Assembly: GCA_965153455.1 (NCBI GenBank)
Contig: OZ234494.1
Span: 434,001-498,000 of the forward strand
Direction of reading: 5' to 3'
From: Sphagnum compactum
Lineage: Eukaryota
Length of the DNA: 64,000 nt
Below the pieces are notes generated by a model that searched no databases, was not told where the DNA came from, and saw only the letters and a program-made list of their open reading frames with translations. Positions within the stretch are counted from its first letter, which is position 1. Every line of letters begins with the position of its first letter. Below, in pieces: positions 14,333 to 28,100 of the stretch. Position numbers and translations under genes: made by a program.

Positions 14333-15697
14333 TGCATGGTAGTGCAAAGCTCAAGCACATAAATAGTGTGTAGTTGGCCCAAGTGTAAACTCATTACCAA
14401 ACTCATTTCATTTTCTAAAAGCATTTTTTGTTTGGACCATAAGCACAATGAGGGGCATTGCGATTTGAGAGATTTCAAGATGACAAATAAACTATTTTCT
14501 TTTGGGGAGGGTGACAAAAGGATGGATATATATATATATATATATAGTTCCCAATGTGCTCCCACCAAGCTCCCTCAAGCTCTCACTGTGTTCCCAACAT
14601 TTTTTCCCAAAGTTCTCAAGAAATCTGATTTCAGAAAAGTAACCATTTTTTGCTGAAAAAACACACATATATCAAAGCGTGTCATCTGAATGAAATTTCA
14701 TTCTATAACCATTTTTTAGGTGGTGCATTTTGAAACTTTAACGATGTTGAATTAAGAATGATTTTCACAATTATTTTCATATTATGATAGCCCAAAACAT
14801 AAAGTCACTTGATGAAGATTACACCTTTTGATTTTATTGTACATGATGCTCCCCAACATTTCTTCAATAGCACCTCACTTTGTCCCATTTGTACTTTATA
14901 TACTTTATATGTTTTTTAAGGGGGTTCATTCCTTCTGCACAACTCTTATGTGAAAACTAAAATACAAAGAAATCTTGAGAATATATCATTTATTTAACAT
15001 CTGCTGAAGGGAATCAAAGGGTGATGTATAAGTAAATTTTGAGAATATCCTTTGAATGAAATTGCTAGCAGAGTGTTGCTAAAATAAGAGTTTTGTAACC
15101 ATAGCACAGGGGCAAAGCTTGCAACCTGTCTGTTGATTACTTAATTAACTTTGAAGATTTCATGTGCAAAATTAAAATATTCCTGAATATTCCAAAAGAG
15201 TATATCAACAGGAGTAGCAAACTAGCACAACATGTTGCATCAAACCTCAAAACATGTATCAGGTGCAGGAACTACGTACATACCTCTTCCTCGTCCCTTG
15301 GATATCAAACATTCTCCAGGATGCTTTGCATTTAAACCTGTTCAAACTCTGCAATCAAAGTAAAATTAACTTATGACTTTAAGTAAGACTCACTTCTCCT
15401 GCACAAGAAAATCCAGACCTATGTACATGGATCTATCTTACCTCACAGCAAGTCAGAATTATGAACCCGAAAACCACTTTCAACAATTTTGTTGTTTGGA
15501 AGAACAGTTACTGCTATGGAGCCTCTCAGGACATGAGTTTGTGAGTGTTTCAGGCAGCTGACATTGCCATAGTTACCACATCATGATACTGACTCCGGTG
15601 TACAAAGTGATGAAGATTTTGTGTCCATTGGTGGAAGCTTCCAAGTGCACCCATCAAGTTGACAACACTTTACAAAATTGCATATGGCAGGAACTTG

Positions 15698-18600
15698 TCA
15701 GAGGTGAATCCGGAGCATCTTAGTAACCCATGTTCCACAGTTGGGCTGGCCACAAATGTCGACTGACCTTGTATTCTTGCAATCCAAACATGGTCCCAGA
15801 TGCCCTGTATGCAATATTGTGCCAGTTCATATCTATGAGGTTTCAGAGAAAACTCCACATAACAGTTTGAAGACAACCTTTGTGTCAGTTCCAGCAATAG
15901 CACAATAGCACAACAAACACAGCAAGAATTCGTGCAGTCATAACCTTGTGGGCATCACAAAGTATCAGACAATAACCTTCATCATGAATGGAAGTGACAA
16001 GCTGTCATTCCTCCAGATGGGGATCATCAGTCTGCAATTTTGGGTGAATACAATTACATTGTAATCTGCTAAAATTTTGAAACTATACAAAAGTCTGCAT
16101 CATGAGTTTCTGTTGCATTTCCAGAAGCAATGGGAAACACATGATTATGGCTAGCACTTAATGTTGTGCCAGTTCAGAAGTTTAGCTACTTCCTTCATCA
16201 AAGATGGAAGAATTTTATGATTATATTACAAGGGCCAGGGCTGAGAAGGAGTGAACTACAAATAGATATTATGGTCTCATTCCAGCAATCCGGTAGGGAT
16301 AAGGCTTAGAGAAATCAACCATAAAACTGATGACACTAGCAAACAAAACAAGCTGACTTGCAAACACAAAGCTACTGACCTTACATGCAACAAGATAGAG
16401 ATGGTGAGACTTACGGCAATCAAGAATCAGATGATCTGGAGGCCTTGCATAGCAGTAGCAACACAAATGTGCATGTTTCTGGAGGTTTGGCTCTGTCTGC
16501 TTGATGGTGACACTGTCTGTGAGAATTGCACTAAAATGAACCTCAACCTTTGATGAAGCTGAGAAGGCAGATGAACTTGTAGCCAATTCCAATCCTGGAA
16601 CTGTCACATCAGAAATAGGTGTGGCAACCTGTGGAGAAAATGAGATGAACATGTCAATTGGGCAAGAAACTGGCAAATGCTGTGTAAAGGTTAGGCAGTA
16701 CTGGAAAATGTTAAGATATTTTCTTGAAAATCTATATCTTCGTAAGTACTGACAACCTCTTTCATATTTGCAATTTAAGTCAACATGAAGAGAATTGAGA
16801 GATGACTCAACAAATAGAAAAAAAAACCAAGGAGAGGTTTCAACAGTGACAGTCACCCACATATTCTACCTAACAGCCATTTATGGTCATGACCAGCTAC
16901 CGTATTATCCCCACTAACTTAATCAGCTCCTGGCAGTGGTTGGAGGTCAATGTCATACATGAACCAACATACTGAGTTTCAATATCAAGTATCAGTAACA
17001 GGAAGACACATCCATGATGCCAGTTAGCTCAATAGTATCTAAATAAGAAATAGAAACCAAAAAGAAAGAGGAACACAAAAAGAGAAAGGGGAAAAAACAT
17101 CAAAGAGTGAGGACTGAGAAACAGCATTTCAAGTGGGTGTCAAGTTGTATGTGATCTTCAAACATGCTGAAATGAAACTCATCAGCACCTATTTTCCAAG
17201 AGAAAACTTCCCAGAGGATTTAGAGAAGTCACATACCTCATAAAAAGATGGGAAGAGCAGAGATGCAGTTGGTACACCAGAGGTTGAGGAGACCTGCATT
17301 TCTATGGCTTCTTGAGTTCTAATCAAAGACTCAGCTGACCCTGTTGATAGTCCCAGAAAACACTCCTCGGAGATGGAGACTTCTCGAGATGCAAAACTTC
17401 GTTCCTTGTTGCTCATTTCAACCTCAAGCTGTTGCTTCTCTCGATCTTGCTCAAAAGCAAGAGGGTTGTATCCAAGCTTGGGGCGAGGTAGTAGAAATTG
17501 CGATACCGATTCAGTAACTGGAGTTGCATGCTGAAGAATAGTGTCCATCATCAAAGGGTTATACACAGATGAAGATTGGAATTGACGTTCTGATGGATTG
17601 GGTTGAACTGGCTCAAAGGACATATCATGTGCTTTCTCCTGCTGGTCTGCAACAATTGCCTGCGGTTTTCCCAACACAAAATTAAGATCTCTGAAACCCT
17701 TCAAGCAGGAAAATTCTCTTTTCAGACACTGCATGAGTGCATGAATGACCAATTCTCAGAGGCTAATGATGGCAATCACATGCAAGCACTCTACAACAGC
17801 AGTAACAAATTCCTACACATGTTTATGACAGCTTCACTGCTCCCATCTAGTCTAATTACTCCAAAATTGTGACCAAGTGGTATAATTCCATAATTTCTGG
17901 CTGAAAGAGGTCAGGTTCTTCATGCTCAGTACATACACAAAGCACCAGTTCAAATTGTTACGGCTGAAAAATACATTTACTTGTCCAGGCTTAAGTAGAA
18001 TAAAGATAATACATCAAAAGCATACCCCACATGTTCTCCCAAGCAATAAATTCCCCTTACCTTTGGAAACAAATGTGGAAACAGTTCCATAGGCGAAAGC
18101 TGTGGTGTTCCTTTGGCTGGTGGTGGTGCAGTGTCAAGAACTCTGCTGTCAGGCTCAAGTCCTAATTCTGATCCAACTGTGCTTGCTTTGGGTGAGCACA
18201 GCTCCTCTCCTTGAAATTTGCCAGCAAATGAGATACAGAGAGGGCTGGGGGGTGCTGCATTATCTAATGAACTTGTGGTTAAATTGAGACTAGCTGGAGG
18301 AGATACCCTACCCTCTGAGGTAAGATTCAGCAGTTCTGTTTCAGATATGTCAGGATATGGACCAGAATCAATGCTGCAAGTTTGGGCCATGTTTTTCAAC
18401 CTGAAAATTGACAAAACCTGTTTCATCTGCACAAAAAGTCTAAGAGTTATGACTAGGGTTGCATCCACAATTTCACCCTCCAGAATAGAGGGCACACAGA
18501 GCTATCTGTGTCCTTGCCTAAAAGGGGTAGTCCAGATCTCATCACAAATAAACCTGGTGGACATTCACCTTTGATACCAGTGGAATAATCTGAACTCATG

Positions 18601-21600
18601 CCAAGTTTCAGCACAGAAACTATCCAAGGCAAAAATCACAAACCAATGCACCTTGCAGTGGAGGATGAAAACAAGCATTAATTCAGGCCCCTCATGTTTG
18701 CAATCCTTGTTGGTGACTGCAACAAACTCTCTAGGAGTTGTTGGTCATAAAAATTGACCAATATCTCTGAGCTACAGTATATGCATTCAGCAGTGATGAA
18801 CCATTGAAAAACCCAAAGCCTAGGAACTCTGGGAACTCACTTTGTATACACCCTAGCCTCTATAATACAAAAATATCCCTTCAAAGGTTGCAAAGCAGAT
18901 GGGAATTTTGAAGCTAGAGAGTGAATTTCCTTTCAATCCAGAAAAAGAAATATACAGTAATCTAAAATTTATGTCCAAGCCTTCAGACCCTTTTGCTAGA
19001 TGATACGTAGGGAGGGTAGATGGTGCTACAAGACCACTGGAGAATATCAAGACTTACATACCTGTGAGAAAGAAAGGTACAGAGACCTGCCAGACATCTG
19101 AGTGGCACCAGGAAGCACAGACTCAAGCTCTGCACCTGTGATTGATACAGGATAATCATGCAAGGTGTCAAACCCAACCAAAGGAGCATAAACCACCATT
19201 GACTCCATCATGGGCCCCACCATCTGCATCATGGACCCTAGGTTGTCATGAACTTATCTGAATGGCTTCTCTTTCAACTTGCATAGCCTTGATTCAGTCA
19301 AGGAGAAGCTTGAGAGAAGCAAAACTAATGAGATCGGTTCACACTAATGATTCAGCACTGGTCAGTACCAGCCCTATGTTGGCTCAGCTTTCAACATAGC
19401 AATGAGGCAATGCCATCTCTCTGCTCTACAGATAGAACCACCAAGTGTCCATCCCTGTTGGATATAAACAAGGAATCCAGTTTCAGTGACACCAATAGTC
19501 TCCTGTAACAACACCCTAGAGGAATGAGAATAATGGAAGTTTCACATACCGGCTTCATACCATATGAAGAAGATTGGTAAACTCCGTATGTCTGTTGTGT
19601 CAAGACGTTGTAAAGAAAAAGAATGCATGTGCCAGGAGCTATATGAGGAACTGCCAACAGATGCTTTGTTGACACACAGAAACGGCTCATCTGCTTGTAC
19701 ATTGCTAGTGTCTCATCGTTGCAGCCTATCACCTGATTCCACACTCACAAACAGTATACATCCAAAATTAGAAGTGTGCACACTTTGCCAGTCCAGTCCG
19801 TGAGTTCTCTTCTATTCTTCCTCATCAAGACAACTTGCCTGTTTGCCACACCAATGGAAGAGACGCTGCTGAAAGGGCATTGAGAACTTACTTGGCCAAA
19901 AAAAGAACTTGGTGTCTCATTCTCTTGAACAGGGGAAACAGAACATGATAAGCTTGGTGTGCCATAATCAAGGGGAGGAAAAACAGAAGATGACAGGCTA
20001 GTTAGCCTGCATTCAATACTTGGGGGTCTCCAGTTGGGTTCACTCATACTGTTGCTGTAGTATGCATCAGGATTGTTGGTTTTGGGAAAAGATAACTGGT
20101 GAAAGTCAGGGGATATCAAATATTCATAGTCATGAACAGTGGGATACTGTGGTATTCTGTTCTCATCAGTCCCATCGGTAGCAAGGTTAAAACTTTTCAT
20201 ACCTACACGGGATGTTCCAGACTCATGAGAAGAGGTGAGGCTACTTGGGGCAATGGAGGAATTGTCAACACCTCTTGAGTCAATGAGAAGAGAGACAGGA
20301 GGTATTGCATCAGATGCTGCAGCTAAATCCATATCAGATAGCTCAGAAGACATTGACCCTACTACAAGGGTCTCTGAAGTAACAACAGATGACTCTTCTG
20401 AAGATCTGAGGCAATGTGCTGAGTATTCTCCAACCACAAATGGCCTTGCAGTAACACGCAATGGTGTCCCAGAACTGTGAATGAAAGTTGACTTTAAGAC
20501 CTCCACATTCTGTGTCAGCTGGGCACTAGATGAATCTGAACCATGTGGCATTGTCACAATGGGTGACATGGAGACAGGTTCAAGCATTGGGACTGGCTGA
20601 AAATTTGTACCATGTGATTCCAGTGAGATGTGATGTGGGAGAGTGGGAGCCAAAGCAGTTGACGTTGTCAATGAGTTAAATGTTGGAGTTGGATCAGCCA
20701 GTGCTCCTGATTCTCGTGATTCTGTTGGTGTGCATGTGAGTGTTGAAGCATGTTCCGTAGTTATGGCAGTTTCTACTGTTGGTGCAGGTAGTGAAGACCC
20801 AGGCTGCACACTTCCATGAGTATGAGCAGGTTCATCAGGTTGTAGCGTGCCCCCTGCCAAGGCAAAAGAGCAATTTACCCCAAGGTCATCTGCAATTAGC
20901 CATATGTGCAAGGAAATTCAAGTACATCTAAAAAATGTTCACTCTTATGCATAATACTGGTAACAGCAAACTGAGAATTTCTGGACTGGAAAAATGTCAC
21001 TAACAGAAATAACTAAAACTCGTCCATAAAATGCTGATAGAAAAGCACTGCATGACTCACCCTCAAGTTCATTGGCATGTAAGTATTCATCAGGCACATT
21101 CGAAAATAAATCCGGTTGAAGTCGCTGCACACATGCAAATATTCTCATCTAACCCTGAGAATTGAGGTTTGAGAGGCCCACTTGCCTCCTGAGAGATTGA
21201 ACAATTCTAAAGCAGTCCAGCAATGGATTGGAAAGAGTTTCAAGTCTTGTGGTCATAAAATCAAGTGCAAAAAGAAAATATTAGTGGAACTTTGAAGGAA
21301 GATAGTTACACTTGATGCCATCAAACTAGGAATTGATGTCTGATGTAGGCCATGAAGTCTTAGTTGCAAAAGCAATTGATATACATGGATTTCTTGCCTA
21401 CAAAAGCAGGATACTCATGGAGAAAAATACAGAACCTTGCAGAAAAGTTCACTAACCACCCACCTCCTTAAGAAAGTAAGTACACTTCAGCTTCATCCCC
21501 CGTACAGAAGTATCATTGTGAAGACCTCTTGCTGTCACAGCTTCTTCCCAAGATCTGCCACTTCCAAAGGTGAAACTCAGCTTACTGCATTTATTCATTT

Positions 21601-24600
21601 GGGCTCTCCTATGACAGCCCTCAAAATGACTTGAGGTTGGATACATTAGAGTACAAGTTACATGTGGCTTAAACCTGGCCCTTCAGTCACGACTCAAATC
21701 ATGATCAGTCGAATGAAAATACAATATGTAGCATACAGAATCTGCAACTCTCACTGTTTACATGTGATTGGTTTGGAAGAATCTGCAGCAGAAAGTCATT
21801 GCATTTGAAACAGAAGCCCATGAAAGCCATAAATCAAAATGGGCAAAAAGAAACTACCCCATGGAAACTGTAGCTATGTGGTAAAAAGGAAACATATCCA
21901 ACTGAACCATTGAGCCTCCTTGAGCAAAGAGGTCTCTCATTTCTGCATAGTCTGCTTCAGGATGCATGTTTTCAATGAGCAAGTGGGGTGATCTGACAAT
22001 TTCCTGCAGAATGTATCAAGGACATGAGTGTGCAAGAATAACACAAGCACTTATGGCACAACCCTAATAAACAACCACACAAGCTGCCAGATTCATAGTA
22101 CATAGCACAGTAGCAAACCCTTCTGCTATGTCCAGGGTAAAGGAGCAAATCAGCAAGTTTAACTATAACGTTAACTTGCAACCAAGAATTTATCCATGAT
22201 TCATACTTGTCCATTGTAGGGAGCACTTTCAATATTTTGATATACTAAAACACACTGTCTCCCATATACATACACAATACTGAAAGTGCCACCCAACTCT
22301 GGATGCCATACTGAAACTTCATCTTCACAACACTATAAGACTCTGAGACAACTCTGTTGAAAGTTTAAAAACATGAGCATCTATCACCACCCAAGAAGAG
22401 GTTTGCTGTTCAGGCATTTGGTTCAAATAGCATAACAAACTTCCTCTACTGAGCTCCATTGAATGTGAATGTACCTGGTGCTCTGGGTCCACTAGTAAAG
22501 ACTGTGCCTTCAACACAGCAAGTGGTGAAAATGCGCTTGATTTTGGGTTTGTCCTAACAGAGCTCTCACCCACGGAAAGAGGCTGGTCACAAACACAATG
22601 CAGTAAGTACCTAAGAACAGTGACACATCGAAAATAGGAAATATGCATGTTGTGGAGCTGATTGACTGGAGATTAAAGCATAGTAATAATGCTTATAAAG
22701 AAGCAAAGACAGGCAGAATGTAACTCACTGGAAATTGAATTGCTGATGGCTCAGAGATAAGTGGTGACAACACTTGATCACTCCAGTAATCATGTGTCAT
22801 CCCAAAGAAACCTGGGTCAGAGTCCTCCTCCTGTTCTTCAGCTGAAGGGAGAGTGAAACCATCCCGAAACAAATGAACCGTCTTCCCCTTTGACTTTGAT
22901 TTCTTCATCTGTGATAACATCATGCATGCAAATATGTCAACATGGCCACAACACTCCTTCTCATCCTACCAAAGAGAATTGTCTCCAAGTCCTAACCTAC
23001 AGACCTGTTTCAAGCCATTGCCCTACTGTGGACACTGGTGACTGGGCATTCTTTCGATGCAGAAACTTTGAATTAGCCTTTTGCTGCAACTTTACAAGTT
23101 CCATCTTCCAATTCCTCCTTTAACAAGTCTCTTGATGGTAGAATGTCAAGGATGACCTATTAACATGACCTTGCTCATGTTGACTCCATTCGTTCCAGCT
23201 TACAATCCTGTGCCCTACTTCTAGAATTATTTTGGCATCCCCTTAAATTCCACCTGCCTGTCCATTCCTTTTGTACTTCACCACTCTTCTATAACTCTTT
23301 CTCCTTTGATGACTCACCCCACTATAAAGGAAGCTGGGGTCACAAGATTTTGTTATCAACTTGAAGCTAAAAGCAACTCCCTCAAACAAGACAACATGAC
23401 CAAGCTATTGCATGAAGCACAGACCTTAAGTGTTTTTTTTGGCTGCTTTGACACTGCCATAACTTCATTCTTTTTCTTGTAGACCTGAAGGGGCCCTTCT
23501 GGTACAACTGCTAACATAGCAGATCCTTCCCCAGCTGCACTAGGCTCCTTGTCCTGTCAAACATATATCTCCAATAGTATAGATCTGGAGACTGGCTACA
23601 GGGAAGTTGCAGTTATACATCTGAACAACTGGTGCTAGTGCTGAGGACCCACTTGCTATTATGAGCCACTATGTTTTACAGCTGGCACTTTACAGCAAGC
23701 AGGACCCCACATGGCTGGTACTCATTGCTAATCATATGGTTCTGGGGTAGTCACCTCCTGAGAAGAGCATGGGCAAGAAGCAGAGAAATTCAATAGACAC
23801 ACACAGAGACATGATGAAATGAGGAAGTTGCATAAAGAAATTTGCACGCAGGGTACCTTTTCAAGGAAGATGTCACAAATAGGTGCTACATTGAAGGTGG
23901 ATGCATTTGAGAGTGTGGCAGACTCAATACACCCTACCCTTTCAAATGACTTGGATGATGAGGAATCCACTCTCAAGATCTTTGCTTGCTCAGCAATTTC
24001 AGCTGAGGTTGATGTAGGTAGGAGATCACAAATAGGTGCTACATTAGAGGTGGATGCATTTGACAGTGTTGCAGGCTCAATACCACCTCTCCTTTCAAAA
24101 GACTCAGATGATGAGGGATGCACTATCAAGATCTGGGATTGCTCAGCAATTTCAGCTGAGGTAGATCTAGCTTCTTTTGATTTGAGCTTTGCCCTTTTCA
24201 CCTGGATCACAGATTGAGGATTTCATGAGCAGATTGTAGACAACAGAGAGACACTGTAGGTTATTCAATGCACTACCAATGCATGCACAAGCACATGTTG
24301 AGTTAGAGGAGTCCTGAGATAAGACCTTCAAAACCTCCAATCATTACCCACATAATGTGCTTATGAACACTCCAGAATCAGCTGTTTTCAGTCACTAGCC
24401 CTGCACTTCATGCCAGCCTTGGCATACACTTCTCCTTGAAGCAGCCAGCTAGGAAACGTATCATTGTGAAAATATAGATGAGCACAAGCAGCAGAATGCT
24501 AGCATCTAATCAACCTTGAAACAAGGAGATTGCAGAAGACAGTGTAGGAGAGGAGGAACTGTGGGCACAGCATTTTGAAAGAACAGCTTATAGTCAGATG

Positions 24601-27379
24601 AGTAGAGAAAATACCAGTTTTTTGCTGTGTGAAGAAGGCAGATCTCTATGTATAGCAGGCTTTTTCTCCTTTTTCACCTCCTCTACAAGCTCATGTATAA
24701 CCTATCGTTTAAAACAACACATGTCATATAGACAACCATAAAACCAACTAACTTTTTTCTGAATAGGCAGACATGAAGCAAACCCAAAGTTTTGCACCTT
24801 TGGTAAAACATCACTGTGAGATACCTCTCCAATCAGCCTCTCCAATCAATCACTAAATTTCAGACAGATCAAATTCACCCCAGTTGAAGAGCCATGAGCC
24901 ATACCTGCTTGCTTTCTCGTGTTTGAACTTTGATAAGCTTGCCTGGGCAATCTACAACCACATAAACAGCCAAAGTTGTTTTAGTTCTCCACACAGAACT
25001 CCTACAAGACACAGAACAACTGCAGATATGAAGATGAACCACATACTATGCAGAACCTTGATTGCTGCCTTCTCCATGATGGCATACTCAAAGACAGTAG
25101 AGAGCTGGAATCTAAGGAAGCAGTCAAAACCAGCATTCCACCCAAGCATAGGCATGGGAAATGTGTGTTGTAAGCTTGTGAAACTCATATACAGAAAACT
25201 GCACCAATGACCATTCAGAAAAGTGCACAGTTCCAAAAATGCCCAAGTAACAAAAAAATCAGCTAACCTGGAGTCATGCATATGGCACCACGGACCATCT
25301 TCCAGTCAGTATTGTTATCCCGAAAGTTCTTCTCAAATTCCCGCCAGCATGCCTGAAAGTGAAATAACACACAGCAACCCTCTGAACAGCTCAACTCTAT
25401 CCGCCTGCTGGATTCTTTAATACTTCGTGATCCATTGGAGCAGCGATCAGCAGTTAAGCCTCTACATAACCCTATCTCTTCATCAAATTCTTCAAGTCCA
25501 GCTCCAGACCCATGCCTTGCAAGAGATCGCAACTCTGCTTCCCGCTCCACCCTCTTATTCTCAACAAGCTCCTGGGCAAGCTCTGGTCCAAGTTTTTCAA
25601 ATGTGCTTCCAGCATCCAAATTCCCTCTACCTTTCCTCGGTTTCTCTTGATCTTCCAGCTCTTCAGTTTTGAGCTTTACATCATTCTGCATCTTCTGCTC
25701 CTGCTTCCACCATACATTGCCTCGCCTCTGCAAAATGGCAATTAGTTCCACAATGACCATCTAAGCGATCCCAGACAGGTAAAACCTTTGAAAATGCCAG
25801 AATGCTCAATCTTATATTTTTCATTCATAAATTGATAGACGATAATGCAAATTGTACTTCAAAAGACTACTGTACCTGCTCGTCTACAGGTTTTGGAGCT
25901 TTATATATTATTCTGTAGAGCAGATGTCTTGCAGGTGAGCATTTGTACTTGGACCTGAATGATTCAAAAGCCTGTCTCCAAGCTTCACAATCTCCTCGAC
26001 CTTCTCCCACCTCAAGACTAACTGTTCTCTCACCTTTGGACATACCAACAATTTTCTGTTTCTCTAAAACACGGTCTTTGTCTGCAACCTCCCGCATGCA
26101 AGCAGAGGAACTGGTTGGAAATCCTTCAGCTCCAGAACCTGGAGGTTCTTTCTGTCTCCTGGTTGCAATAGCACTCCTATTGACAAGAGAAAATGAGACC
26201 TACAGGTTCCCCATGCAGCAACCATTGAAAATAGATTTTCCAATTGACACAATTTCAGAGTCTGCGAGCAAGCTCAGTTTGTTTGTTTGTTTATGTCAAG
26301 TACAGACAGATCAGCCAATTAAAGTTTTGGGAGTTCTTGCACATGAACATCAAGAATAGAGTACCCTTAAAGGACCAGGAAAAACCAGCTCAAGCCCATC
26401 AGAAATGCTGGAAAGTTTGTTGGAAGTTTGGAAAAAAGAGGAAGAGCAAGTGCAGAATTTTAAATCTGTTGTCCATAGTGCCTCAGCATCTCATGACAAG
26501 TGTGATGCTACCTGAGGATTTAGGGTTTAGGCAAGCAGCAGTGACAATACATGCTCAAGATCCCTTCTCCTATGTCCAAAGCTCTGAGAAGGTGAAAGGG
26601 GATTCGCACCAATCCAAAGCCTTCTTATTCAAAAGCCCCCTCTTCAACGCTGCACATACATTGTGGAACTCGGTTGCTGATTTGTACTTCCTGGAGCATT
26701 TGTGAGCCTCGGAACCATAAGAATCGGCAAACATGCGTTCCTTCTGGTACTCGCTCTCCAACTCCTCAAGCTCCGGATCGGATCCAGGACAATCGCTCCA
26801 ACCGGAGGAGCCAGACTCCACACTGCTCCTCTCAAAGCCGTCGGACAAATCATGATCACGTTCCTTCTGAACGACGCACGATTCAGCAGTCTCAGCTTTA
26901 GACGACGACAGAATTTTCGCCAATTTGGAACTCTCCAAACGATTGACTGCAACCCTAGGAGTTGTACCGGCAGTAATACTCCGAGACCAATTCTTCGCAG
27001 CCTTAGATCGATTGGCAGATTCAGCAACAACAACATCATCATCCTCATCGTAATCACTGTCTCCGCTATCCGACGACTCCACCTCATGCTCCCGCCACAG
27101 CGAGGAGCAGTCCCGTGACTTGAAGTGCGACAAGAAACTGGATCTTATGGATTCACGACTAGTACTACTAGTACCGGGAGACGAAGACATGACAATGAGC
27201 TCTCCGCCCGACGGATTCCCGGGCCGCGTCCATCGACTGATAGCCGTAGTGCGCGACGATCCGTCTTCCTGCGGTATCCTGATGACGGCGTGCACCACGC
27301 GCGGCATGTCGGCTTCCCGCTGCCTCTCTCCTCTTCTTCTGTCTGAACCACCATCAGCCTGGTGAAGAATGTCGTCCAT
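15698..27379 (-). CDS. ~1750-aa multidomain putative RNA-binding RING E3 ligase (TTC3/DZIP3-like Cys/His domain + RRM + DCD + C3HC4 RING); 19 exons: 27379-26610, 26176-25876, 25727-25268, 24951-24905, 24701-24615, 24201-23857, 23553-23425, 22908-22729, 22582-22475, 22003-21858, 21554-21464, 21124-21061, 20853-19784, 19732-19550, 19223-19062, 18426-18061, 17659-17237, 16628-16415, 15804-15698
   Basis: The hand-built model joins 19 exons by GT-AG introns into one stop-free 5253-nt frame. Motifs are completed across junctions: CMTP|DCPG; RRM LLIENM..DLFAQGG..ATVSMG|SWEEAVTARGLHN..VRGMKLKCTYF; DCD GK|VIGCNDET..IAPGTCILFLYNVLTQQTYGVYQSSSYG; RING CCYC..LILDC|RHLGPCLDC..CGQPNC. Exon boundaries in the low-complexity parts are less certain. 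Confidence 0.82.
23870..24165 (-). repeat. Two-copy 153-bp (51-aa) in-frame tandem duplication within exon 6 of the RING/DCD gene
   Basis: TSAEIAEQ...SFER..IE.ATLSNAST.NVAPICD occurs twice; tcacaaataggtgctaca is found at 23873 and 24026. Confidence 0.9.
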
Positions 27380-27407
27380 GTGGATATCGCCGATTGTTGT
27401 CGCCAGC

Positions 27408-27530
27408 GCTGCTAGTTCCTATTCTCCGCCTGCTGATGATACCGTAGCTGCTAGTTCCTATTCTCCGCCTGCTGATGATACCGTAGCTGCTAGTTCTCTC
27501 TCACATGCTGCCGCTAGTTCCTATTCTCCA
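27408..27530. repeat. 39-bp tandem repeat (~3 copies) just upstream of the RING/DCD start codon
   Basis: gctgctagttcctattctccgcctgctgatgataccgta is repeated twice, followed by partial copies. Confidence 0.85.
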
Positions 27531-27727
27531 CTCTGCTGCCGATCATGCCGCCGCGTTTGCGACGAGACCTGGCGAAGCTCGCATTCATGAAAACGACAGC
27601 GAGCAATTGGAGAAGCGAGCGAAGTACGTCCGCCACGGAGCTTTGCCTTTCTCTCTCGCCCTCTCTCTCGCTCTCGTGGCTCTGCCCGTTTTCTTTGGTC
27701 TGCCCGAAGGGAAGAGACCGAAGTGGC

Positions 27728-28100
27728 GATCATCCATAGGAAGATTTAGCCGAATTTGGCGATCATCCATTTTGTGATGTACCCAAAGTGGGGATCATCC
27801 ATAGGAAGATTTAGCCGAATTTGGCGATCATCCATTTTGTGATGTACCCAAAGTGGGGATCATCCATAGGAAGATTTAGCCGAATTTGGCGATCATCCAT
27901 TTTGTGCTGTTCCCAAGGGGGGGATCATCCATAGGAAGATTTAGCTGAATTTGGTGATCATCCATGTTGTGTTGTACCCAAAGGGGCATGGTCATCCGTA
28001 GGAAGATTTAGCTGAATTTGGGGATCATCCATTTTTTGAGATGTAGCCAAATTGGCAATCATCCTAGGAAGATTTAGCCAAATTTGGCTACAAGCTGAAT
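27728..28100. repeat. 65-bp tandem array (~5.5 copies) at the end of a dispersed repeat; a related copy lies at about 59117-59230
   Basis: gatcatccataggaagatttagccgaatttggcgatcatccattttgtgatgtacccaaagtggg starts at 27728, 27793, 27858 and 27923, then decays. The adjacent atgtagcc...ggcaatcatcct...gccaaat.tggcta..aatatgaaa motif recurs near 59117. Confidence 0.9.

Follow-up and report, generated by a model that had tools for sequence, protein, structure and literature searches.

A TTC3/DZIP3-type zinc-binding domain in an intact, expressed peat moss gene for a putative RNA-associated RING protein

The window, as we call the whole stretch of DNA that was analysed, comprises 64,000 nucleotides (nt) of the peat moss Sphagnum compactum (GenBank assembly GCA_965153455.1, contig OZ234494.1, positions 434,001 to 498,000 of the forward strand), and all positions below count from its first letter. 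Its minus strand carries a gene of 19 coding exons (27379..15698) in an RNA-guided model, in which all 18 introns are of the GT-AG type and the frame of 1705 amino acids (aa) is intact from the ATG at 27379 to the stop codon at 15700..15698, with an in-frame stop lying 5′ of the ATG. Exons 3 and 4 of this gene encode a cysteine-rich motif that a first-pass annotation had likened to a zinc-binding segment of the animal proteins TTC3 and DZIP3, and the likeness held, as the domain scored above the gathering score of the Pfam family PF19179 (TTC3_DZIP3_dom). The gene is spliced and transcribed, and its protein contains three further blocks, namely an RNA recognition motif (RRM)-like block, a DCD domain (named for development and cell death) and a C-terminal RING-like finger.

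The minus-strand peptide of exons 3 and 4 reads CRGLTADRC…CSEGCCVLFHFQACW…ICMTP/DCPGKLIKV, with the slash at the exon boundary. The span 24905..25466 given to the motif in the first pass was exact, since the codon of Cys436 (CRGL...) begins at 25466 and exon 4 ends at 24905. The minus-strand stop-to-stop frame 25760..25263 reads ...GLCRGLTADRCSNGSRSIKESSRRIELSCSEGCCVLFHFQACWREFEKNFRDNNTDWKMVRGAICMTPG, and the frame 25045..24875 on the same strand holds DCPGKLIKVQTRESKQ; a GT stands directly after ...ATGACTCCAG and an AG directly before ATTGCCCAGGC, so that the codon of Asp502 is split as G/AT. Seven of the eight zinc ligands (C436, C444, C462, C466, H471, C475 and C498), followed by T500-P501, are encoded by exon 3, together with a charged, probably helical lead-in. 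Together the ligands follow the pattern C-x7-C-x17-C-x3-C-x4-H-x3-C-x22-C-x4-C, a C4HC3 order with a TPDC motif, and the Pfam match extends to about residue 519 in exon 5 (24696). The eight ligands would hold two zinc ions.

RNA from two moss metatranscriptomes (X1, X2), a probable RNA run (X5) and a polyA RNA-seq read set (X22) was placed on window positions 15500-27600. The joint across intron 3 (24951 to 25268) was supported by contigs from each of X1, X2 and X5 and also by 10 reads of X22 that begin at 9 different positions, establishing that the motif is indeed divided by a real GT-AG intron between two coding exons, as first proposed. The joint across intron 2 (25699 to 25875) occurred in contigs of the same three sources, with 0 X22 reads in the row listed for it. 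Among the joints listed, 15 had RNA support from contigs or reads; refined to canonical ends, all read CT..AC on the plus strand, equivalent to GT..AG on the minus strand. The joints of exons 1/2, 4/5 and 16/17, which lie outside the listed RNA joints, were placed by GT-AG ends, an open frame and homology, and that of exons 16/17 is also consistent with loose RNA ends at 17661 and 18060. X22 contributed 833 reads on the gene region, 701 of them at an identity of at least 99%, and its first mates lie nearly all on the plus strand, which for the usual stranded library implies RNA from the minus strand. The product is 90% identical to the S. jensenii proteins P0002 and P0003 across residues 1-1705 and 93.6% identical to the S. 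magellanicum protein P0001, an N-terminally shorter model; with Sphagnum proteins as its nearest relatives, the gene belongs to a moss and not to an angiosperm.

The first pass had proposed a comparison with the Pfam TTC3/DZIP3 profile. A 120-aa domain stretch of P0001, which by eye differs from the window product in exon 3 at a single position (R in place of Q), upstream of the part that matches, matched PF19179 with 38.7 bits and an expectation value (E) of 9.6e-10, against a gathering cut-off of 26.9 bits, and the three full-length Sphagnum proteins scored 33.2-33.5 bits (E about 4e-8). We also built an alignment, A2, of 17 sequences (moss, two algae, six further sequences and eight stretches from TTC3-type profile matches, three of these eight without a name), and 17 of 17 matched PF19179, with a best E of 8.8e-44. 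The invariant columns of A2 are C28, C54, C58, H63, C67, C90, T92, P93, D94 and C95, with C36 kept in 16 of 17; in the window protein the conserved columns correspond to C436, C444, C462, C466, H471, C475, C498, TPD500-502 and C503. A CW pair and the TPDC motif are common to moss and animal TTC3 in this alignment. Judged by these profile matches, the motif is the predicted zinc-binding core of a genuine TTC3/DZIP3-type domain, in line with the resemblance originally noticed.

To place the domain among its relatives, we compared the 120-aa stretch by phmmer with 1.84 billion protein representatives, which returned 20 proteins at E ≤ 1e-3. The named match was a Mesotaenium endlicherianum protein of 1318 aa, through whose cluster the 1700-aa Klebsormidium nitens protein GAQ89571.1 was reached; the other true matches were eukaryote-like metagenome or transcriptome proteins. 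When these 20 and the cluster member P0024 were scanned, PF19179 was found at E ≤ 0.01 in 15 of 21, eight of them above the cut-off, with 27.2 bits in Mesotaenium and 21.5 bits in Klebsormidium, and with 75.6 and 64.2 bits in the fragments P0015 and P0017, both retrieved with the moss stretch. P0013 matched in the tail after the domain and nowhere else, and P0020 and P0021 matched the moss stretch and lacked PF19179 at E ≤ 0.01. A profile of 11 stretches, A1, then retrieved 101 longer proteins, of which three were from Sphagnum, two were alignment members and 96 were others, nearly all of these named animal TTC3 or carrying TTC3-like Pfam sets (best, a Limulus TTC3-like protein, E 4.7e-13). 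This search covered 8000 word-sharing candidates and did not recover the algal proteins of its own alignment, so its silence on other plants has little meaning; word-indexed protein searches with exon 3 and the domain region likewise returned only the three Sphagnum proteins and are uninformative on distribution. We dismissed three phmmer matches as spurious, namely a DUF4371 repeat protein from pea (P0005), with no PF19179 match and with repeat units devoid of the Cys/His ligand pattern, and the phytoplasma protein P0007 and P0023, with no PF19179 match and short query ranges. The P0004 cluster (35 members, metagenome open reading frames of about 165 aa) represents an exon-3-like reading frame present on many contigs and 72% identical to the P0001 query stretch, and is probably a paralogue or a more distant moss orthologue.

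Table 1 Features of the gene and of two related viral genes. Positions refer to the window unless another sequence is named.
Feature	Position	Strand	Remarks
Exons 1-5	27379-26610, 26176-25876, 25700-25268, 24951-24905, 24701-24615	minus	
Exons 6-10	24201-23857, 23553-23425, 22908-22729, 22582-22475, 22003-21858	minus	
Exons 11-15	21554-21464, 21124-21061, 20853-19892, 19732-19550, 19223-19062	minus	
Exons 16-19	18426-18061, 17659-17237, 16628-16415, 15804-15698	minus	
Exon 3	25268..25700	minus	aa 358-501 and first base of codon 502
Intron 3	24952..25267	minus	316 nt, GT-AG; divides Asp502 within the TPDC motif
Exon 4	24905..24951	minus	47 nt; completes D502, eighth ligand C503, then PGKLIKVQTRESKQ
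Predicted zinc-binding core C436..C503	24947..25466	minus	intron 3 included
Tandem duplication	23873..24170	minus	exon 6; in-frame, 153 nt (51 aa), 1.9 copies, 86% alike
RRM-like block (putative)	21107..21991	minus	about aa 805-885, exons 10-12
DCD (development and cell death) block	18379..19909	minus	about aa 1216-1352, exons 13-16
RING-HC-like finger, C-terminal (plausible)	15734..16463	minus	aa 1655-1694, exons 18-19
Viral zinc-domain genes	L001 313-2445, L002 301-2283	plus	710 and 660 aa; C-terminal ...D(D)xLWPxFF

Three collinear blocks, the zinc domain, the RRM-like block and the DCD block, are common to Sphagnum, Klebsormidium and Mesotaenium by BLASTP, and outside them the overall identity to the algal orthologues is low. 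The RRM-like block matches Klebsormidium and Mesotaenium with E of 6e-9 and 1e-6; the Klebsormidium orthologue, named 'RRM domain-containing protein' at its source, scores 18.3 bits for RRM_1 (PF00076) against a cut-off of 20.7, and the sole sequence match of the block in the PDB is the RRM of RBM30 (E 0.5). Moss and the algal orthologues conserve about 135 aa of the DCD block (E 2e-12 and 9e-12), and PF10539, with a cut-off of 27.8 bits, scores 29.4 bits in P0002 and 28.1 in P0003 but 27.0, just below that value, in P0001. The C-terminal finger reads C-x2-C-x11-C-x-H-x3-C-x2-C-x8-C-x4-C, a full C3HC4 ligand set, and all nine of its weak PDB matches (E 0.14-0.74) come from E3 ligases (MGRN1, XIAP, cIAP2 and MEX3C), whose C-terminal RINGs they represent; a single-sequence fold of this region was unusable, with a predicted local distance difference test (pLDDT) score of 43. 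The zinc domain and a C-terminal RING also occur together in P0014 (RING-H2, 32.4 bits) and P0020 (zf-C3HC4_3, 28.5 bits), and a clear RING accompanies the zinc domain in P0028, P0032 and animal TTC3. The pairing is not universal, as the algal models and viral proteins lack a RING.

The viral proteins, of 710 and 660 aa, are encoded on two giant-virus-sized IMG/VR contigs of 1.84 and 1.91 Mb and score 28.2 and 20.4 bits for PF19179. We computed an IQ-TREE tree of 49 domain rows and 100 columns, with the Shimodaira-Hasegawa-like approximate likelihood ratio test (SH-aLRT) as its only branch support. One branch (SH-aLRT 95) sets off the six named streptophyte rows along with four further rows, another (SH-aLRT 81) sets off 21 rows labelled as animal, and the two viral rows form a third, separate long branch (SH-aLRT 94). 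Because Klebsormidium and Mesotaenium carry the same collinear zinc, RRM-like and DCD blocks, we regard the gene, by comparison, as an old streptophyte gene, neither a contaminant nor a recent import.

Taking these observations together, we consider it likely that the window holds a PF19179 domain in an expressed, intact and old streptophyte gene, whose product would be an RNA-associated RING-type E3 ubiquitin ligase, and that the domain itself is probably ancient. Because a DCD domain, an RRM-like block and a C-terminal RING occur together, an RNA-associated RING E3 ligase is the simplest reading of the protein. Bell et al. 2020 (PMC7641849) describe DCD as a PUA/EVE-like module predicted to read modified bases, possibly in RNA. 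In such a ligase the RRM-like block and the DCD domain would bring the protein to RNA, the C-terminal RING would recruit an E2, and the TTC3/DZIP3 domain might offer a rigid, zinc-stabilised docking surface for a substrate, a partner or a nucleic acid. A more far-reaching proposal, which we put forward only tentatively and think unlikely to hold in full, is that Klebsormidium, Mesotaenium and Sphagnum have in common a ubiquitin ligase family, RNA-guided and so far undescribed, in which the DCD/PUA reader and the RRM would target the RING and the zinc domain would be the conserved core that docks a substrate or RNA; most land plants would have lost this family, whereas peat moss would have kept it, and the repeated pairing of the domain with RNA-binding modules and RINGs, in plants and protists as well as in animals (DZIP3), might reflect an ancestral eukaryotic module of RNA-linked ubiquitination.

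Several points speak against this interpretation. As to the domain, window exon 3 alone, ended by intron 3, scores below the PF19179 cut-off (20.9 bits, E 3e-4); the moss match covers profile positions 54-113 of 116, leaving the first half of the model unmatched; and the first Cys pair is present in moss with a different spacing, the animal 'DPDFKGF' segment being absent. The reach of profile A1 to TTC3 is partly circular, because A1 contained P0015 and P0017, and no protein named DZIP3 stood among the matches listed. We know of no function for the TTC3/DZIP3 domain, and a literature search found no paper naming the domain or the orthologue genes, the papers on TTC3 and DZIP3 being gene lists or expression studies. 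The tree is unrooted and has many long branches, and P0117, one of its 21 animal-labelled rows, was assigned without an organism name. As to the other blocks, no RRM match was found in the Sphagnum proteins at E ≤ 0.01 and RRM scores are sub-threshold everywhere; the DCD match is marginal and covers profile positions 2-63 of 126; the RING profile zf-C3HC4_3 (PF13920) reaches 16.9-17.2 bits (E 0.004-0.005) in the Sphagnum proteins against a cut-off of 27; and the gene models of Klebsormidium and Mesotaenium, which are possibly truncated, gave no RING match.

The last two of these points are what an alternative to the ligase would build on, in which the C-terminal finger is degenerate or otherwise not an E3 and the zinc domain binds nucleic acid in an RNA-binding or RNA-processing protein. 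The blocks common to all streptophyte members are indeed the zinc domain, the RRM-like block and the DCD block, and the only other Pfam match of the moss 120-aa stretch at E ≤ 10 is zf_PCFS4 (E 0.014), the zinc finger of PCFS4, an RNA 3′-end factor. However, the C-terminal cluster keeps its full C3HC4 ligand set, its weak PDB matches are all genuine E3 RINGs, and animal TTC3, P0014, P0020, P0028 and P0032 likewise combine the domain with a clear RING. We therefore judge this alternative to be rather unlikely and retain the RNA-associated ligase as the working assignment of the protein.

With respect to origin, the first pass had left two possibilities, an ancient eukaryotic domain retained in this lineage or a separate acquisition. 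In the second case the domain would have entered streptophytes by an ancient horizontal transfer, for example with a giant virus or another eukaryote as donor, instead of descending from the last eukaryotic common ancestor, and would then have been fused to the RRM and DCD modules. The distribution looks patchy, the named plant-lineage matches being Sphagnum, Mesotaenium and Klebsormidium among the matches listed, and two giant-virus-sized contigs do encode the domain. This patchiness, however, may reflect limited sensitivity, as the scan used a single sequence and the profile search was word-limited to 8000 candidates. Moreover, the streptophyte rows form a group of their own, apart from the viral rows and not nested among the animal ones, the same three-block architecture recurs in three streptophyte lineages, and the gene is rich in introns, one of them inside the domain. 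Transfer is accordingly an improbable source. Because the streptophyte rows group apart and an intron lies within the domain, the evidence favours old vertical descent within streptophytes over recent transfer, and thus the first of the two possibilities; the domain is probably ancient in eukaryotes and patchily retained, and its relatives suggest a wide, possibly ancestral eukaryotic distribution.

A further alternative, named in the first pass as the outcome that would overturn it, is that an ordinary PHD/RING-variant finger or a chance Cys-rich stretch merely resembles the TTC3/DZIP3 pattern. The C4HC3 ligand order is that of PHD fingers, and weak matches to such families do occur in A2, namely zf-RING-like in 5 of 17 members (best E 0.13), zf-HC5HC2H in 3 of 17 (best E 0.014), PHD_NSD and IBR in 2 of 17 each and PHD in 1 of 17 (E 0.43). 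By contrast, PF19179 outscores them in each of the 17 members, with E values many orders of magnitude lower, and is the sole significant match of the moss stretch, in which no PHD or RING Pfam model was found at E ≤ 10, and TPDC and CW are held in common with animal TTC3. With the best competing E at 0.014-0.43, in at most 5 of 17 members, no better PHD or RING-variant match emerged, and we regard this explanation as very improbable.

The predicted fold adds detail to the zinc domain. AlphaFold2 on A2 gave a confident model, with a mean pLDDT of 83.4, a predicted template modelling score of 0.69 and blocks at 88-95 over most of the core. It placed a short strand before C28 and a hairpin with C54..C58 and H63; a helix then starts at residue 66, and a last hairpin follows C95. 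From the ligand order and this predicted hairpin-helix layout, a cross-brace is likely, in which ligand pairs 1 and 3 and ligand pairs 2 and 4 would each bind one zinc; that this arrangement is predicted from ligand order and secondary structure also tempers the interpretation. Foldseek with the domain model returned nothing from the PDB at E ≤ 0.001, about 15 of 50 rows being RING, PHD, ZZ or U-box by entry titles, all under the noise level of the tool, and the A2 profile matched no PDB chain at E ≤ 1. A Headcase N-terminal domain, raised by an ESM Atlas feature search with values of 0.85 and 0.76 (lead level 0.9), was discarded, as no A2 member matches HECA_N in Pfam.

That the gene might be a pseudogene, a mis-assembly or contaminating animal DNA has next to no probability, as nothing was found in its favour and the 1705-aa frame is intact, with stranded, spliced coverage in polyA RNA-seq and moss metatranscriptomes and a whole-length identity of 90-94% to annotated Sphagnum proteins.

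Animal TTC3 combines PF19179 with TPR repeats and a C-terminal RING-H2. The moss protein resembles it in the zinc domain, with eight ligands, CW and TPDC, and in the position of this domain far upstream of a C-terminal RING-type finger. The two differ in that the moss RING is C3HC4_3-like rather than RING-H2, only the second half of PF19179 aligns, and TTC3 lacks the RRM-like and DCD blocks; at E ≤ 0.01 the Sphagnum proteins had no match to TPR or to the TTC3-specific families PF24812, PF24905, PF24525 and PF25575. On this domain content the moss protein is not an orthologue of TTC3. To animal DZIP3 (hRUL138), an RNA-binding RING-H2 E3 ligase, the link is one of domain family by Pfam definition and rests on the family name; the combination of RNA binding with a C-terminal RING is a conceptual likeness, whereas the RNA-binding parts of DZIP3 are unrelated to the RRM-like and DCD blocks of moss. 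The giant-virus proteins share a PF19179-type domain but have no RRM, DCD or RING and end in another motif (...LWPxFF).

Among plants, the protein is related to DCD proteins, its DCD domain lying at or near the Pfam cut-off in Sphagnum, and in UniRef the S. jensenii orthologues bear the name 'DCD domain-containing protein'. The Sphagnum orthologues already carry tags for PF19179 and PF10539 from public pipelines, the only families in the precomputed lists. Tenhaken et al. 2005 (PMC1182354) describe four plant DCD subgroups, all of them lacking a zinc domain, an RRM and a RING, and their main text contains zinc, RING and RRM as words 0 times; TTC3, DZIP3 and RRM have 0 occurrences in PMC7641849, and DCD, TTC3 and DZIP3 have 0 occurrences in the main text of a RING repertoire paper (PMC6118397). 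The gene adds a member to a domain family that was already known, in an architecture that we found in no paper.

Although its name hints at an animal speciality, the domain would thus be inherited vertically within an expressed gene of the plant lineage, which would push its origin back well before animals. The gene provides a second, independent context, beside RRM-like, DCD and RING modules, for a domain of no known function, and this pairing suggests, as a testable idea, that the domain belongs to RNA-linked ubiquitination. It would also extend the architecture of DCD proteins beyond the plant subgroups described so far. The practical weight is modest, as the PF19179 tag on the Sphagnum orthologues is already public and the function proposed here is read from sequence.

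Several minor observations concern the rest of the gene. The tandem duplication in exon 6 sits between the zinc domain and the RRM-like block. At window 21464-22006 on the minus strand, tblastn places one RRM-like part of the Sphagnum proteins at two adjacent positions, with 67% and 50% identity; the RNA-defined exons there are smaller than the tblastn pieces, one of whose ranges contains a stop, which may point to a local duplication that has since diverged or to retained intron sequence. The acceptor of intron 1 (26173/26176) offers two in-frame AGs 3 nt apart, of the NAGNAG type, giving 1704 or 1705 aa with the frame open either way. Within intron 18, loose ends at 16094-16136 are common to many reads of X22 and to several contigs, and they continue in various ways, suggesting a repeated element or another transcript. 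Rfam at gathering scores gave 0 matches across the whole window. Upstream of the start codon at 27379 lies a perfect 39-nt repeat of 2.3 copies (27408-27496), and farther upstream, at 27721-28088, a 65-nt array of 5.6 copies with 88% matches.

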